A stretch of DNA of 64,000 bases from an uncultured Solirubrobacterales bacterium (lineage in GTDB: Bacteria > Actinomycetota > Thermoleophilia > Solirubrobacterales > Solirubrobacteraceae). Positions 1 to 10,095 of this stretch are shown piece after piece. Position numbers and translations under genes: made by a program. The notes beneath the pieces were generated by a model. That model ran no database searches. It saw nothing but the letters and a program-made list of their open reading frames with translations, and was not told the DNA's origin. The stretch covers positions 480,983 to 544,982 of the forward strand of contig CAVVKF010000001.1 of assembly GCA_963748895.1 (NCBI GenBank). Reading direction: 5' to 3'. Numbering within the stretch: position 1 is the stretch's first letter; each line of letters starts with the position of its first letter.

Positions 1-644
1 CGTCGGGCACCGGCAAGTCGGTGTGCATCAAGCACATCGTCGGCCTGCTGTATCCCGATGAGGGCGATGTGATCGTGCACGGACACTCGATCCCGAGCCT
101 GCCCGACGAGGAGCTGTTCGAGCTGCGCAAGAAGTTCGGCGTGCTGTTTCAGGACGGCGCGCTGTTCGGGTCGATGAACCTGTATGACAACGTCGCCTTC
201 CCGCTGCGCCAGCACACTGAGAAGAGCGAAGAGGAGATCGCCGAAATCGTCAACCGGCGCATGCGCGAGGTCGGCCTGGGGGGCGAGGGCACGAAGATGC
301 CAAACGAGCTCTCCGGCGGGATGCGCAAGCGCGCCGGCTTCGCGCGCTCGCTGGTGCTCGACCCCGAAATCCTGCTGTTCGACGAGCCCGACTCGGGCCT
401 TGACCCGGTGCGCACCGCACTGCTGTGCGAGCTGATCAAGGAAGTCCACGCGGAGAACGGCGGGGCATATGTGGTGATCACCCACGACATCATGAGCGCG
501 CGGCGCGTCGGCGAACACATCTCGGTCCTGTGGAAGGGCAAGGTCGTCGAGTCGGGCCCGGCGGCTGAGCTGTTCGCGAGCGAGAACCCCTTCGTCCGCC
601 AGTTCCTCTCGGGCGAAGCACAGGGTCCTCTCGGTATGGAGTGA
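1..644 (+). CDS. ABC transporter ATP-binding protein, MlaF/Mkl (Mce-associated) family; 5' truncated by window edge
   Basis: Walker A ..SGTGKS at window start, FQDGALFGSMNLYDNVAFPLRQHT, LSGGMRKRAG signature, LLFDEPDSGLDP Walker B. Confidence 0.85.
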   Translation, partial: SGTGKSVCIKHIVGLLYPDEGDVIVHGHSIPSLPDEELFELRKKFGVLFQDGALFGSMNLYDNVAFPLRQHTEKSEEEIAEIVNRRMREVGLGGEGTKMPNELSGGMRKRAGFARSLVLDPEILLFDEPDSGLDPVRTALLCELIKEVHAENGGAYVVITHDIMSARRVGEHISVLWKGKVVESGPAAELFASENPFVRQFLSGEAQGPLGME

Positions 645-3391
645 GCTCAGCGCGGCTCCTAGCCGCCCTGACGGGCGCTGCGACGCGCAAGCCGGTGCTG
701 GTGATCGTGCTCGCGACGGTGCTCGGGCTGGTGGGCGCGGCCTTCGCGCTGAAACTGAGCCCGACGGCGGCGACGAATACGTTCGTGTCGAGCTCCAGCC
801 CTGAGTACAAGGCCACCCAGAAGTTCTACAAAAACTTCGGCGAAGAGCCGATCGAGGTGCTGGTGAAAGGCAACCTGCAGCAGCTCGTGCTCAGCTCGGA
901 CGTCGACCGGCTGGTGGGGCTGGAGGGGTGCCTGTCGGGCAACGTGCCTAAGCAGGCGCTCGCGCAGGAGGGCGGCGTGGACGGACCGTGCGGGCAGCTC
1001 GCGAAGGCAAAGACGGTGAAGGTGGTGTTCGGGCCGGGGACGTTCATCAACGAGGCGGCCGAACAGATCGACGAGCAGCTGAGGGTCCAGACCAAGCAGG
1101 CCGAAGCCGCGGCCAAGCAGGCAGAAGTTGTCGTGAGGAAGGCCGCGCTCGCGCGCGGGGAAAGCACCGAAGCAGCGGAGAAGCTCGCCGAGCAGGCGAG
1201 CTCGATCACGCTCGCGCGCTTCAAGGAGGGTCTCGCGACGCTGGCGCTGCAGTACGGGCTCACCGCGCGGCCGAGCCTGGACGACCCGAGCTTCGTCTCA
1301 GCGCTCCTATTCGACTCGAACAAGCCGGCGGGCACGCCGAAGGCTCGCTTCGCCTACCTGTTCCCGAGCCGCGAAGCGGCGTTGATCTCGGTGCGCTTGA
1401 AGGCTGGGCGCAGCGAAGGCGAGCGGACGCGCACGATCGCGCTGATCCGCCAGGCGGTTGCGATGAAGCAGTGGCGGTCCCAGCACGGGGAGAGTTACCT
1501 GATCACCGGCCAGCCGGTGATCGTCGCGGATCTGACGGGGAAGATCACGCGCTCGATCGCGCTGCTGCTGGTGGCGGTGATGCTGGTGATGGCGCTCACC
1601 CTCAGCCTGATCTTCCGCGGGCGGCCGCGGCTCTTGCCGCTGGGGATAGCGCTGCTCGCCGCCGCGCTCACGTTCGGCGCGCTGTCGGTCGTGGGGGCGT
1701 CGTTGACGGTGGCCTCGATTGCTGTGCTGCCGGTGCTGGTGGGGCTCGCGGTGGACTACGCGATCCAGTTTCAGTCGCGCGTGGAGGAGGCTTTTGCAGA
1801 AGAGACCGATGGCTTGGAGACCCACCGATTAGGAACCCACCCACCCGAGGACGCGCGCGCGGCGGTCAGGCGCGCGGCCACCACGGCCGCGCCGACGATC
1901 GCCACGGCCGGGATCGCGAGCGTCGCGGCGATGCTGGTCCTGTTGCTCTCGCCGGTGCCGATGGTGCGAGGCTTCGGGCTGTTGCTGGCGGTGGGCGTCG
2001 TGATCGCGTTCCTGTGCGCGCTGACCGCGGGGTCGGCCACGCTGGTGCTGGCCGAGCGCCGAGCGACCGCACGCAGTGCAGCCGGACGAGGAGTGCCCGG
2101 ACCGCCGCGAGCGACGCGTGTGGATCTGGGAGCGTTCGGCGCGTCGCTGGGCGCGGCCTGGCGCGGAGCCCGCGAGCTGCTGCTGGAGAATCCGGTCAAT
2201 CGCTTCGTGGGAAGGGTGGCGCTGATCGAGGCGGTGCGCCGGCCGGGACGGGTGCTCTGTGTGGGGCTGGCGCTGGCGGCGCTCGGCTGGGGCCTGGATA
2301 CGCAGACGCACGTGGAGACCAACATCGAAAAGCTGGTCCCGCAGAACCTGGAATCACTGCAGAACCTGAACGCGCTCGAGCGCGCCACCGGCGTCGGAGG
2401 GCAGCTCGACCTGTTGCTCAGCGGGAAGGATCTGGCCAAGCCGGCGACGATCGAATGGATGAGCTCGTATGAGAGCGCGATGCTGAAGCGCTTCGGCTAC
2501 AGCTCCACGCGCGGCTGCGGGCAGGCGCGACTGTGCCCGGCGTTCTCGCTGCCGGACCTGTTCGCCGGGACCTCCACGACCGCCAAGGCGCCGAAGCTCA
2601 CGCGGGCCGATGTGCAGGGCCTGCTCGACGCGATCCCGCCGTACTTCTCTCAGGACGTGATCACCCCCGATCGCCGCACGGCGACGCTGGCGTTCGGCAT
2701 CCGGCTGATGTCCTTGGAAGAGCAGCAGCAGCTGATCGAAGCGATGCGCTCGAGCCTGCATCCGCCCGCGGGGGTGAGCGCGCGGCTGGCCGGGCTGCCG
2801 GTCCTGGCGGCCCAGTCCGGTACGCAGGTGGCGTCCCCATGGCGACGCCTCCAGGCCCTGCTGATCGGACTGGCGGCGGTTGCGCTGGTGCTCTTGATCG
2901 CCTTCCGCGGCGACCGTCGCCGGGCGCTCGTGCCGCTCGTGCCGATCGCGCTGGCGACGGGGTGGTCCGCGCTGATCCTGTTCGCGGTGAGGGTGCCGCT
3001 GAACCCGATGTCGGTCACCCTGGGCGTGCTGGTGATCGCGATCTCTACCGAGTTCAGCGTGCTGCTGTCCGAGCGCTACCGCCAGGAGCGCTTGCGCGGG
3101 CGGGACACGATCGCGGCGTTGCGCCGCACCTACACGCGCACGGGGGCTGCGGTCGCGGCCTCGGGGGTGACGGCGATCGCGGGCTTCGGTGTGCTGGTGC
3201 TCTCGGACATCCGCATGCTCCGCGACTTCGGGCTGGTGACGCTGATCGACTTGACCGTCTCGTTGGTGGGGGTGCTGGTGGCGCTGCCGGCGGCGCTGAT
3301 GCTCGCGGAGCAACCGCGAGCGATCGCCGTCAGCGTCCCGCCTCTTCGCCGGATGCGGCGAGACGGGCGCACACGTCATGAGTCAGCCTGA
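641..3391 (+). CDS. MMPL/RND-superfamily lipid transporter (916 aa)
   Basis: Two TM blocks, each preceded by an extracytoplasmic domain; GLAVDYAI motif; overlaps the ATPase stop (GTGA). Confidence 0.8.
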   Translation: MSSARLLAALTGAATRKPVLVIVLATVLGLVGAAFALKLSPTAATNTFVSSSSPEYKATQKFYKNFGEEPIEVLVKGNLQQLVLSSDVDRLVGLEGCLSGNVPKQALAQEGGVDGPCGQLAKAKTVKVVFGPGTFINEAAEQIDEQLRVQTKQAEAAAKQAEVVVRKAALARGESTEAAEKLAEQASSITLARFKEGLATLALQYGLTARPSLDDPSFVSALLFDSNKPAGTPKARFAYLFPSREAALISVRLKAGRSEGERTRTIALIRQAVAMKQWRSQHGESYLITGQPVIVADLTGKITRSIALLLVAVMLVMALTLSLIFRGRPRLLPLGIALLAAALTFGALSVVGASLTVASIAVLPVLVGLAVDYAIQFQSRVEEAFAEETDGLETHRLGTHPPEDARAAVRRAATTAAPTIATAGIASVAAMLVLLLSPVPMVRGFGLLLAVGVVIAFLCALTAGSATLVLAERRATARSAAGRGVPGPPRATRVDLGAFGASLGAAWRGARELLLENPVNRFVGRVALIEAVRRPGRVLCVGLALAALGWGLDTQTHVETNIEKLVPQNLESLQNLNALERATGVGGQLDLLLSGKDLAKPATIEWMSSYESAMLKRFGYSSTRGCGQARLCPAFSLPDLFAGTSTTAKAPKLTRADVQGLLDAIPPYFSQDVITPDRRTATLAFGIRLMSLEEQQQLIEAMRSSLHPPAGVSARLAGLPVLAAQSGTQVASPWRRLQALLIGLAAVALVLLIAFRGDRRRALVPLVPIALATGWSALILFAVRVPLNPMSVTLGVLVIAISTEFSVLLSERYRQERLRGRDTIAALRRTYTRTGAAVAASGVTAIAGFGVLVLSDIRMLRDFGLVTLIDLTVSLVGVLVALPAALMLAEQPRAIAVSVPPLRRMRRDGRTRHESA

Positions 3392-5478: not shown

Positions 5479-5928
5479 TCAGTGACTGAGCGCCATCGCG
5501 CGATGCTCACGCGGAGCATGGTGCGCTGATATCCCAAATGGCCGGTTGTAGAGCTCGGCGGCCTGATCGCTGTCCTGCTGCGCCTCAGCGGCCTCCGCAC
5601 AGCTTTGCGGAACGGCGGTGAGCATCGCCGCGAGCGTGCGGCGCTGGCGGTCGGTCATCGATCCGACGGTCTTCTTCTCGGACATTGCGATCTGGGCGAG
5701 AAATTTGCGACAACGTGTCTGGCCCCAGCGACGCTGGCTCATCAGTAGGTCCGCGACCGCCATCGAGTCGGCCTCCCACGGGCAATCGAGGATCACCGCG
5801 GCGACGCAGAGATCACCAAGCGCGACCCGGCGCTTGAGCTCGGCGCGGGCGAGGCGGACCTGATTGGCGCGTTCCAAAGCGCGCATGTACTGCGGACCGG
5901 CAGGGGCGACCGTCGCTGTCGCGTTCAT
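5479..5928 (-). CDS. Actinobacterial integration host factor (mIHF/sIHF)-like nucleoid-associated protein
   Basis: ALERANQVRLARAELKRRV...MAVADLL....WG..R..KFL..I.MSE.K.VGSMTDRQR matches the mIHF pattern ALEKA...R.ARAELK..L...MKVS.LL..LP.VG..KA..I...L.I...RR.RGL.DRQR. Confidence 0.65.
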   Translation of the reverse strand: MNATATVAPAGPQYMRALERANQVRLARAELKRRVALGDLCVAAVILDCPWEADSMAVADLLMSQRRWGQTRCRKFLAQIAMSEKKTVGSMTDRQRRTLAAMLTAVPQSCAEAAEAQQDSDQAAELYNRPFGISAHHAPREHRAMALSH

Positions 5929-6247: not shown

Positions 6248-7537
6248 TCAGGCCTGCTCCGGCAAAGGCAGTGGACCGTGCTCGGCCTCGAACTCAGACT
6301 TGACCCGCGCGAAGACGTCGAGCGCTCGATCGAGCACGGCGCGGTCGTGGGTGGCCATCACGCTGGTGCGCAGCAACGCCCCGCCCGGCGGCACGGCGGG
6401 GTGCAGCGCGCAGTTGGTGAAGACCCCGCCGTCGTACAGGGCGCGCCACAAAAGCGCCGCCTTCCAGTCGTCGCCGACGAGCACGGGGACGATCGGCGTG
6501 ACGACGGTCTCAACAGGAGCATCCTCATCCGGGCCGAGCCGCACGGGCTCACCGCTGAGCACCCGGAATCCGAGCGCGCGCAGGCCGTCGGCGAAGTAGC
6601 GCGCCTGCTCGAGCACGGTCGCCAGCAAAAGTGGGCCGTCGGGCGAGCGGATGATCCGCAGCGCGGCCAGCGTCGCGCCCAGCGCGGCGGGGACCCCTGA
6701 GGCGGTGAAGAGGAATGCGCGCGAGGAGATCCGCAGGTAGTCGATCACCTCCGCCGGGCCGGCGACGAAGCCGCCGCAGGAGGCGAAGGACTTGGAGAAG
6801 GTGCCCATGCGCAGGTCGACGCGCTCCTCGACTCCGAGCAGCTCGGCCGTCCCCGCGCCGCGCGCGCCCAGCACGCCGGCGCCGTGCGCCTCGTCGACCA
6901 TCAGGCGCGCGCCGTAGCGGGCGCACAGCTCGACGATGTCGACTAGGGGCGCGACGTCGCCCTCCATCGAGAAGACGCCGTCGACGACCACCAGGACGCC
7001 ACCACCGTCTCCCTGAGCGCGCTCGAGAGCACGCTCCAGCTTGTCCATGCGGTTGTGGCGGAAGGGACGCATCTTGGCCTTCGAGAGCAGGACGCCGTCG
7101 AGGATCGAGGCGTGATCGCCGGAGTCGACGATCACGGTGTCAGAGGGGCCGAGCAACGTTCCGAGCGTGCCCACGTTGGCCTGATGGCCGGTGGTGAAGA
7201 CGATCGCGTCGTCGGTGTCCATCCACTCGGCCAGCTCGCGCTCAAGCTCGAGGTGCAGGGGGGTTGTGCCGTTGAGCAGGCGTGAACCGGTCAGGCCAGT
7301 GCCGTAGCGGTGCAGGGCGTCCTCGGCGCCTGCCATCACGCGCTCGTCGGCGGTGAGGCCGAGGTAGTTGTTGGACGCGAGCATGATCCGGGGTGAGCCC
7401 TCCATCTCGACGACCGGCATCGCCGGGGACTCGACGGTCCGGAAGTAGGGCATCAGGTCGGCCTCGCGTGCGGCGCGCAAAAGCTCCTCGCGCTCGTGGC
7501 CGCGGACCTTGGAAAAGACGTCTGTCGAAGTGGGCAT
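6248..7537 (-). CDS. PLP-dependent alpha-oxoamine synthase, serine palmitoyltransferase-like
   Basis: PYFR, SNNYLGL, GSRLLNGT, DHASILDG, DEAH, PLP-Lys motif GTFSKS; start trimmed to ATG 7537. Confidence 0.75.
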   Translation of the reverse strand: MPTSTDVFSKVRGHEREELLRAAREADLMPYFRTVESPAMPVVEMEGSPRIMLASNNYLGLTADERVMAGAEDALHRYGTGLTGSRLLNGTTPLHLELERELAEWMDTDDAIVFTTGHQANVGTLGTLLGPSDTVIVDSGDHASILDGVLLSKAKMRPFRHNRMDKLERALERAQGDGGGVLVVVDGVFSMEGDVAPLVDIVELCARYGARLMVDEAHGAGVLGARGAGTAELLGVEERVDLRMGTFSKSFASCGGFVAGPAEVIDYLRISSRAFLFTASGVPAALGATLAALRIIRSPDGPLLLATVLEQARYFADGLRALGFRVLSGEPVRLGPDEDAPVETVVTPIVPVLVGDDWKAALLWRALYDGGVFTNCALHPAVPPGGALLRTSVMATHDRAVLDRALDVFARVKSEFEAEHGPLPLPEQA

Positions 7538-7552
7538 ATAGGGTCTGGGCCA

Positions 7553-8702
7553 GTGAGCGTGTCTGAGCGAACAGCAGGCGTCCAGGTCACACCGGTGAAC
7601 GGCAGGCGGGAGACGAAAGCGTTCATCGACCTGCCGTTCAAACTGCATGCTAACCACCCGTTGTGGATCCCCCTGCCGAAGCTCGAGCGCTGGGTCTTCC
7701 TCAACCGACGTATGAACGCCTTCTTCAGTCACGGGGAGGCCGAATACTTCCTCGCCAAGCGGGACGGGCGAGTCGTGGGACGGATCAGCGCCCAGGTCAA
7801 CCACGCGTTCAACGACTACCAGAAGAAGAACTGGGGCTGGTTCGGCTTCCTCGAGTTCGAGGACAACCAGGAGGTGCTGGACGCGCTGCTGAGCGCCGCC
7901 GAGGGATGGTGCAAGGCGCGCGGCAAGGAGCGGATGGTTGGGCCTGCGGACTTCTCGATGAACGAAGAGAGCGGCATCCTGATCGAGGGCTTCGAGCTGC
8001 GTCCGATGATCAAGCAGCCATGGCACCCGCCCTACTACCAGCAGCGCATGGAGCAGGCGGGGATGAGCAAGGCGATGGACCTGTTGATGTGGAAACTGGA
8101 GGTCGAAGATCGCGACAAGGTGCTGCCGGTGATCTGGGAGCTGGCGGAGAAGGCGCAGTCAGAGCATGGGATCAGGGTGCGCCCGATGAGAAGGCGCCAA
8201 CTGCGCAAAGACATGGACTCCTTCGCCGAGGTCTACAACGCCGCGTGGGCCAAGAACTGGGACTTCGTGCCGTATTCGAAGAAGGACCTGGATGCCTACG
8301 CCCAGGAGATCCAGCTGGTGTTCGACAAGCACTGGTGCATGATCGCCGAGAAAGAAGATACGGGCGAGGTCGTGGGCATGGCGATGACCTTCCCCGACCT
8401 CAACCAGGTGCTGGAGAAGATGCAGGGCAAGTTCCTGCCATTCGGCTGGTGGCACTTCCTGAACAAGGGCAAGATCACCGATCGGGTGCGCGTCGGCTTC
8501 CTCGGCGTCAAGCCGGAGTACCAGCACACGGGCGTCGCGGCGAGGCTCTACCAGCTGCACTTCGACGCGGCCGAAGCAGCGACCGCAGAAGGGCGGCGAG
8601 ATGGGCTGGATCCTGGAGACGAACACGTCGATGAACAGGGGCATGGAAGCGATGGGCGGGAAGGTCGTGAAGCGCTACAGGGTCTACGAGCGGGAGTTTT
8701 AG
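7553..8702 (+). CDS. GNAT-fold N-acyltransferase, bacterial ceramide synthase (bCerS)/YghO-like; one indel near 8580
   Basis: FIDLPF..H..HPLWIP, EAEYFLA.RDG.VVGRISA, GWFGFLEF, GP..FSMNEESGILIEGF, PYY; C-terminal WILETN..MN..ME.MGG...KRYRVY in the shifted frame. Confidence 0.7.
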
Positions 8703-8850
8703 GGGGACGAGCCGCCGCGACGCGGAGAACCCACAGGGACCGCCCGGTCGAGGCTGGGTGGAGCAACAAAGTGCTTTCGACACAGGCTCATCCCCAATGC
8801 ACAGAGGCGGCGGCGTGAAGCAGTCTGGGCGGCCGCGTACACTGCGCGGG

Positions 8851-9198: not shown

Positions 9199-10095
9199 GC
9201 GACCGCAGCAACCTGGTCGAGCTGCGCGAGGAGGTACGGCCGGCCGGTCCGTACAGGCTGCCAAGGCGAAATGGCATGGATGGGGTGACGCGTCGCCGCG
9301 GCGGCGTGTTGGAACGACTGCTGCATCACGAGGACGCGCCGGTGGTGGTGCGCGTTGCTCAAACGGCCCCGGACAGAGTCATCTTCGGCGCACGCGCCCA
9401 GACACACGAGGCCGCGAGGTACGGCATCGCAAGGATGCGGTTCGCGCTCGCGGTGGACGACGACCTGGGGGCATTCCACCGCCGCTTCGCAGACGACCAA
9501 ATGATCGGGCGCTCGGTGCGGGCGCGCCCGTGGCTGCGGGTGGGACGCCGCCCGGAGCCGTTCGAGGCGCTCGTGTGGGCGGTATGCGAGCAGCTGATCG
9601 AGTACGAGCGCGCGGCAAAGATCCAGAGCCGGCTGGTGACGCGCCTCGGACGGCGCTGGACGGGCAGCGGGATGCAGGCGTGGGCAAGCGGGTTGCGCGA
9701 TCTGCCGACGGCCGCGAAGCTGGCCGCAACGGCGCCGGCGATGATCGAGTCCTGCGACCTCGCGGCGGCGCGCGCGATCGCGTTGAGAAGGGCCGCGCGC
9801 GAGGTTGCACAGGGACGCGTGAACCTGCGCGACCCCGCCGAGCACGAGCGCGGCTGGAAGCGGCTGCGCGCGATCGCGGGCATCGGCGCGTGGACCGTGG
9901 AGATGATGGCGCTGTGCGGCCAGGGCCGCTACGACCAGCTGCCCGCGGGCGATCTCGGCCTGCTCGAAGCTGGTCGGACGCAGACTAAGCGGCGGCAATC
10001 CAAAGGCCCGCGCGGAAGAGCACGAGGTGCGCGCGTTCTTCGCCGATTACGGCGAGTGGGCCGGGCTCGCCGCCGTGCACATGCAGGGTCTGTAG
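9195..10095 (+). CDS. alkA: DNA-3-methyladenine glycosylase AlkA (HhH-GPD family); indel near 9966; start approximate
   Basis: PFEALVWAVCEQLI, HhH L.AIAGIGAWT, LPAGDLG. Confidence 0.75.

Follow-up and report, generated by a model that had tools for sequence, protein, structure and literature searches.

A head-to-head gene pair for an Spt-like synthase and a YghO/bCerS-family acyltransferase in a Solirubrobacterales bacterium, likely first steps of a ceramide-type pathway

The 64,000-nucleotide stretch analysed here (the window; GC content 65-75%) lies on contig 1 of the genome of an uncultured Solirubrobacterales bacterium (GCA_963748895.1), which is assembled as 2.2 Mb in three contigs with a marker completeness of 65%. 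It carries two adjacent, divergently oriented genes, one for an alpha-oxoamine synthase (AOS) that resembles serine palmitoyltransferase (Spt) and one for a GNAT-fold protein of the YghO/bCerS family. Judging from their sequences and genomic setting, the products of these genes likely catalyse the first two steps in a ceramide-type pathway of bacteria. The Spt-like and bCerS-like family assignments had been proposed in an initial annotation of this DNA, made without database searches, and are upheld by homology, phylogeny and gene context. Ceramide synthesis has already been published, and predicted for some Gram-positive bacteria, so that the pair extends the pathway to another lineage and is not a new kind of system; the supplement text of PMC11334938 makes no mention of Thermoleophilia or Actinobacteriota.

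An Spt-like alpha-oxoamine synthase

The synthase (P0001) is encoded by an intact, uninterrupted open reading frame (ORF) of 429 codons on the minus strand (6248-7537), in which all four motifs named in the initial annotation were located, i.e., PYFR (aa 30-33), GSRLLNGT (aa 84-91), DHASILDG (aa 141-148) and GTFSKS (aa 245-250). The protein matches Pfam family Aminotran_1_2 (E 7e-51) and is recognisable as an AOS of the fold-type I enzymes dependent on pyridoxal 5'-phosphate (PLP), given that the PLP lysine, Lys249 within GTFSKS (codon 6791-6793), aligns to Spt structures together with DHASILDG and DEAHG. Among NCBIfam models, the highest score was obtained with Spt of the CFB type (378.5 bits), followed by Spt of the BetaP type (362.5 bits), Kbl (341.8 bits) and BioF (334.4 bits). 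The top solved structures are the Spt enzymes of Sphingobacterium multivorum (299.5 bits) and Sphingomonas (~255 bits), followed by BioF/Kbl (~242 bits), while cysteate-C-fatty acyltransferase is also found among the PDB matches (193 bits). The extended motif GTFSKS[LF]xSxGGF is common to the synthase and the Spt-like rows of the alignment, whereas GTLGKA occurs in Kbl, in ALAS and around the PLP lysine of the genome's own BioF, in agreement with the earlier suggestion that GTFSKS points to Spt over BioF or Kbl.

A maximum-likelihood tree placed the window synthase and its orthologues within a clade (support 100/99) that holds all Spt and Spt-like rows, with Kbl, BioF and ALAS outside, while approximately unbiased (AU) tests rejected trees uniting it with Kbl (p 0.009) or BioF (p 0.002). 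This comparison with Spt, BioF, Kbl and ALAS had been set beforehand as a test capable of overturning the proposal, and the proposal withstood it. The references are PGAP-named or context-defined, and not all of them have been characterised by experiment. Those on the BioF/Kbl/ALAS side were E. coli BioF and Kbl, the Kbl proteins of Ralstonia and Paracoccus (each encoded beside tdh), Azospirillum BioF and two ALAS, while the Spt side comprised E. coli Spt, Spt-like proteins of Bacteroides and Prevotella, and the N-terminal half of an AOS-GNAT fusion protein. GNAT-linked synthases of Streptomyces, Rubrobacter, Aureispira and Pseudomonas veronii were also included, as was the genome's own BioF, read through its frame break with X; an ORF of genome G121 (L030:5988-7163) was left out on account of a branch length of 10 and a wrong frame.

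The biotin cluster of the genome, consisting of bioB (a fragment), bioF (in two frames) and a bioD-like gene, was found at ~436900-439100 of contig 1 (G000:C1; L028:7180-10024), ~43 kb upstream of the window start, so that the earlier remark that no biotin genes lie nearby holds for the window. Since this second AOS gene sits between bioB- and bioD-type genes, biotin synthesis is already covered.

A tandem-GNAT protein of the YghO/bCerS family

The second gene lies on the plus strand, divergent from the synthase gene, and comprises 382 codons across two frames: a GTG start and the N-terminal 342 codons in frame A (7553-8578), and the C-terminal 40 codons plus stop in frame B (8580-8702), which encode the conserved C-terminus (RPQKGGEMGWILETN...YEREF*). 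It matches Pfam family Acetyltransf_1, and its product shares 87-92% identity with 'GNAT family' proteins of 375-385 aa from Solirubrobacteraceae metagenome-assembled genomes. Furthermore, it exhibits 32% identity to E. coli YghO over the full length (residues 17-380), and 35-36% identity to the GNATs encoded by AOS-GNAT-reductase operons on Streptomyces and Rubrobacter plasmids. The family, which numbers 6,870 clusters at 50% identity, yielded for the window protein neither an NCBIfam model nor a PDB sequence match. For the intact orthologue P0003 (91% identity), an AlphaFold model with a pLDDT of 90.7 shows a tandem GNAT, the nearest PDB folds being tandem-GNAT acyl-CoA N-acyltransferases (TM ~0.6), and this orthologue model corresponds to the soluble GNAT fold of ~375 aa expected of the family.

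The identity of YghO can be approached through gene context. In UPEC_U013 (L017), yghO is divergent from genes for a fatty acyl-AMP ligase, an NAD-dependent epimerase, an acyl carrier protein (ACP) and Spt, after which lptF/lptG-like and flippase-like genes follow; spt is the PGAP name, and the encoded protein passes the NCBIfam cut-off. Ceramide synthesis in Caulobacter requires aasR, cerR, acpR, spt and cerS, with lptF2/G2 and a flippase gene nearby (PMC11324152). Because the UPEC gene set matches this Caulobacter set, YghO is by synteny the E. coli counterpart of CerS/bCerS. The yghO gene of E. coli K-12 (L015; 3129043-3131340) abuts IS5 and lacks the ligase, epimerase, ACP, spt and lptF/G-like neighbours, an arrangement that suggests the loss of a Caulobacter-type sphingolipid cluster from K-12.

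The reading frame of the GNAT gene

Aligning the gene with intact homologues and, at the DNA level, with two relatives placed the break between the two frames at 8576-8579 (plus strand), where one extra base is present: the window reads GCAG where the relatives have one 3-base codon, i.e., GAA GCA G CGA at a position where the homologues carry HFDAAE-x-RPQK. Beyond 8578, frame A encodes nonsense until a stop at 8818. The gene at 7553-8702, described earlier as a single coding unit, is real and of the bCerS/YghO family, but it is not one open frame.

This extra base is probably a long-read assembly error, because the 40 codons after the shift are conserved at the protein level, other genes are split as well, and a closely related sequence carries the opposite shift at the same codon. 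That sequence, the closest relative obtained (ENA contig_31070; L018), stems from a different assembly, is 92-94% identical to the window at the DNA level and differs from it by 22-56 gaps per 3-5 kb. In its GNAT orthologue (L018:4833-5875), the codon that carries the +1 in the window is affected by a -1 indel, and two more 1-bp indels lie near the 5' end, while the MMPL gene of L018 is in three pieces. When 13 neighbouring genes were compared with relative L007, two were split across frames, namely the GNAT gene and an HhH-GPD gene (9204-10092), and further split genes in the source genome include bioF (two frames), a GMC oxidoreductase gene (two ORFs) and bioB (a stump of 141 aa). Systematic long-read error would also account for the low marker completeness despite an assembly in three contigs. 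Programmed frameshifting was considered and set aside, since the relatives are in frame and the only other broken copy is shifted the opposite way.

Linkage of the two genes

The two start codons are 15 bp apart, as had been stated: the ATG of the synthase gene occupies the complement up to 7537, while the GNAT gene opens with GTG at 7553, leaving an intergenic gap of 7538-7552. A TAGGGT hexamer (TANNNT-type, -10-like) at 7539-7544, 8 bp before the GTG and conserved in L007 and L008, would be compatible with a leaderless GNAT transcript; a sigma-70 consensus scan of the intergenic region returned no match.

The distribution of the pair was assessed in a class sample of 151 genomes, in which related genomes are not independent and counts are thus descriptive. 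Every one of the 25 sampled members of the order has the pair. The GNAT, present in these 25 of 25, occurs in only 5 of 125 genomes elsewhere in the sample. All GNAT-positive genomes but one, and none of the GNAT-negative genomes, encode a synthase with 46% or more identity to P0001, and 19 of the 25 order genomes have the two genes side by side in divergent orientation. In Solirubrobacterales-type actinobacteria, the pair is inherited vertically and is characteristic of the whole order.

Association of the two families extends further. A 780-aa protein from an ENA metagenome contig (P0254) represents a natural fusion of an AOS (aa 57-396) and a YghO-type GNAT (aa 409-779), while co-directional operons of AOS, GNAT and NAD(P) reductase genes are found on a Streptomyces plasmid and on plasmid 1 of Rubrobacter radiotolerans, with the same three genes also present in Aureispira. 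Within the relatives of the source genome, G089 and G017 (L044, L046) have the HhH-GPD gene directly after the synthase gene with no GNAT gene between them, their sole GNAT copy residing on another contig or 138 kb away.

Two further members of the GNAT family were observed. P0243 (784 aa) is a GNAT-GNAT duplication. The source genome itself encodes a second, intact YghO-family paralogue (G000:C2:156161-157282; L027:8159-9289, minus strand) that is 55% identical and groups with the non-adjacent copy of G089; DUF899 and enoyl-CoA hydratase genes lie on either side of it, and a gene for a DAGK_cat/YegS-type lipid kinase is located ~4 kb off.

Search for a CerR-type reductase

CerR is an NDUFA9-like, NAD-dependent reductase, and in Caulobacter it is periplasmic. 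CerR-like queries taken from Streptomyces, Rubrobacter, E. coli and Aureispira did not retrieve an orthologue from the source genome, itself incomplete as noted above, and returned only partial matches of 50-70 bits to the Rossmann half, the best of them at ~60-70 bits. The top match is a generic NAD_binding_10/Epimerase protein encoded 328 kb away, and partial matches of this type are equally common in families of the class with and without the GNAT. No reductase gene was found within 10 kb of the pair in either L007 or L008. The absence of a CerR-type gene from the window, pointed out earlier, was thus borne out with the queries used, and the genome-wide search that had been recommended produced generic short-chain dehydrogenases/reductases and no orthologue. 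An FA2H-type hydroxylase (PF04116) was likewise not found in the genome.

Comparison with known systems

The pair may be compared with several known or predicted systems. With that of Caulobacter crescentus, which comprises spt (CC_1162), cerS/bCerS (CC_1154), cerR (CC_1164), acpR and aasR (PMC11324152, PMC11087976), it shares an Spt-type AOS and a soluble GNAT-type N-acyltransferase, a likeness drawn from published descriptions of the cluster. Unlike the Caulobacter genes, those of the window have no adjoining CerR, AcpR or AasR gene, none of which is recognisable in the genome; furthermore, where Caulobacter has LptF2/G2-type genes, an MMPL gene and an Mla-like ABC system are found upstream of the pair instead, and the host is an actinobacterium. 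The yghO locus of non-K-12 E. coli is similar in that YghO is a full-length homologue encoded divergently from the synthase operon, and in that E. coli Spt and the window synthase share 41% identity, while it differs in possessing the five-gene set, of which the window has two genes, and an Spt that scores above the BetaP cut-off.

The operons of the Streptomyces sp. NBC_01001 plasmid and R. radiotolerans plasmid 1 belong to the same phylum, and encode synthases (42-45% identity) and GNATs (35-36% identity) related to those of the window. The NCBIfam profile of their synthases is also the same, with Spt of the CFB type scoring best and under its cut-off. These operons are, however, co-directional triads with a CerR-like reductase gene, followed by a condensation-domain or LTA-synthase-family gene, whereas the window pair is divergent and without a reductase gene. 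The acyl-CoA-dependent Spt of Sphingobacterium multivorum (PDB 3a2b) and other Bacteroidota aligns with the window synthase at GTFSKS, DHASI.DG, GSR.LNGT and PAVP, and neither has an ACP partner gene, consistent with the use of acyl-CoA (PMC11324152); the window synthase differs by an insert of ~18 residues (aa ~328-346) and is ~41% identical to the Spt-like proteins of Bacteroides and Prevotella. With BioF and Kbl (those of E. coli, Ralstonia, Paracoccus and Azospirillum, and the genome's own BioF) it has in common the AOS fold and the positions of the catalytic Lys, His and Asp, while these enzymes form separate clades, carry GTLGKA and not GTFSKS, and occur in a bio or tdh context that is not seen at the synthase gene.

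Proposed pathway and alternative explanations

Based on the families to which the two proteins belong, the soluble Spt-like synthase would form a 3-keto long-chain base by condensation of a long-chain acyl thioester and an amino acid, for which L-serine is the most likely candidate. Since the synthase gene has no dedicated ACP or acyl-ACP synthetase gene next to it, acyl-CoA is the probable thioester, as for the Spt of Bacteroidota. For Caulobacter, condensation followed by N-acylation, both in the cytoplasm, has been proposed (PMC11087976, PMC10191378). By the same order, the cytoplasmic YghO/bCerS-family tandem-GNAT protein would N-acylate the base to an oxo-(dihydro)ceramide, and the product would either stay in the 3-oxo form or be reduced by an unrelated reductase.

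Several observations weigh against assigning the pair to a ceramide-type pathway. The synthase scores under every NCBIfam Spt cut-off (378.5 versus 640 bits for the CFB, 362.5 versus 500 for the BetaP and 287 versus 670 for the AlphaP type), as the GNAT-linked synthases of Streptomyces and Rubrobacter likewise do, while E. coli Spt passes its own (BetaP). The placement of the synthase inside the Spt-like clade is not fixed by the tree, in which a basal position was not rejected (AU p 0.35), so that the sequence does not tell which amino acid the enzyme uses. The tie of the GNAT protein to the characterised bCerS (CC_1154) runs via the synteny of E. coli YghO, and the frame of the GNAT gene is broken in the assembled sequence. 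Finally, full-length matches between CerR-like proteins of four phyla reach 100-150 bits, as opposed to the 50-70 bits obtained here, and marker genes put the completeness of the genome at only 65%.

Some of these points would be expected if the pair made a non-sphingoid N-acyl amino-ketone or amino-lipid, with the synthase using alanine, glycine, cysteate or a similar substrate and the GNAT acylating its product. Sub-threshold scores with all Spt equivalog models, a possible basal branching in the Spt-like clade and the failure to find CerR are all in keeping with such an activity, and AOS enzymes close to Spt do take other substrates, as exemplified by the cysteate-C-fatty acyltransferase. 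We nevertheless consider this explanation improbable, given that the nearest characterised or solved relatives are Spt enzymes, which score clearly above the cysteate enzyme, that the triad-linked synthases of Streptomyces and Rubrobacter give the same NCBIfam profile, and that the partner GNAT is of the bCerS/YghO type. Much further from the evidence is the suggestion that the synthase is a housekeeping BioF or Kbl which happens to lie beside an unrelated acetyltransferase gene. Source databases do label its orthologues '8-amino-7-oxononanoate synthase', and the lead of the Spt models over those of Kbl and BioF is no more than ~40 bits, but a grouping with either enzyme was rejected by the AU tests, the genome has its own bioF in its bio cluster, and no tdh or bio gene adjoins the synthase gene, while the phyletic co-occurrence of synthase and GNAT and the existence of a fusion protein speak against a chance neighbour; we regard this case as exceedingly unlikely.

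A different explanation accepts the synthase as Spt-like and takes the GNAT gene for a true pseudogene, so that the locus would yield only a free keto long-chain base or would rely on the second GNAT paralogue. The frameshift is indeed present in the assembled sequence, the 55%-identical paralogue is intact, and relatives G089 and G017 manage with a distant GNAT copy and none adjacent to the synthase gene. Set against this are the protein-level conservation of the 40 codons past the shift, the splitting of the neighbouring glycosylase gene, bioF, bioB and the GMC oxidoreductase gene, and the many indels of L018, which in a different assembly has a -1 at the very same codon and thereby points to systematic long-read error. 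Decay of the gene thus seems quite unlikely, though not to the degree of the BioF/Kbl case.

The ceramide-type assignment of the pair accordingly remains the favoured one. A more far-reaching version would be a two-enzyme form of the pathway in Solirubrobacterales, ending in a 3-oxo-(dihydro)ceramide or completed by a reductase unrelated to CerR, with the upstream MMPL and Mla-like ABC genes exporting the lipid; this combination is put forward tentatively, as rather doubtful in its entirety. If it were true, such export would provide a first handle on bacterial sphingolipid transporters, which are still unidentified (PMC11087976). If the lipids were confirmed, very common and poorly cultured soil actinobacteria would join the sphingolipid producers, with consequences for the reading of environmental ceramide signatures. 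Solirubrobacterales are an abundant soil order and have no periplasm, and the lineage would then serve as a natural test of whether the CerR-dependent last step is dispensable or replaceable in the absence of that compartment.

Genomic neighbourhood

The pair is embedded in a block (MlaE-MlaE-ABC ATPase-MMPL-Trx-like-B3_4-like-unknown / mIHF-like, synthase / GNAT, unknown, HhH-GPD) that is conserved order-wide and not beyond the order. It includes the MMPL-family transporter gene (641-3391, plus strand) and, downstream of the synthase gene, a small conserved gene (5614-5928, minus strand) without a Pfam match, the product of which resembles actinobacterial integration host factor (mIHF) as read from its sequence and is not an ACP. 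On the other side, downstream of the GNAT gene, lies the HhH-GPD-like glycosylase gene (9204-10092, plus strand), in which a frameshift near 9967-9986 separates two frames. Gene order offers only a lead to a functional connection of the transporter genes with the lipid genes, because the block also holds housekeeping-type genes and because the GNAT gene alone has left it in two relatives.

A further gene of possible relevance was observed outside the order: on plasmid 1 of Rubrobacter radiotolerans, the AOS-GNAT-reductase operon is directly followed by an LTA-synthase-family gene (L021:12431-14500), the product of which might transfer a head group to the lipid.

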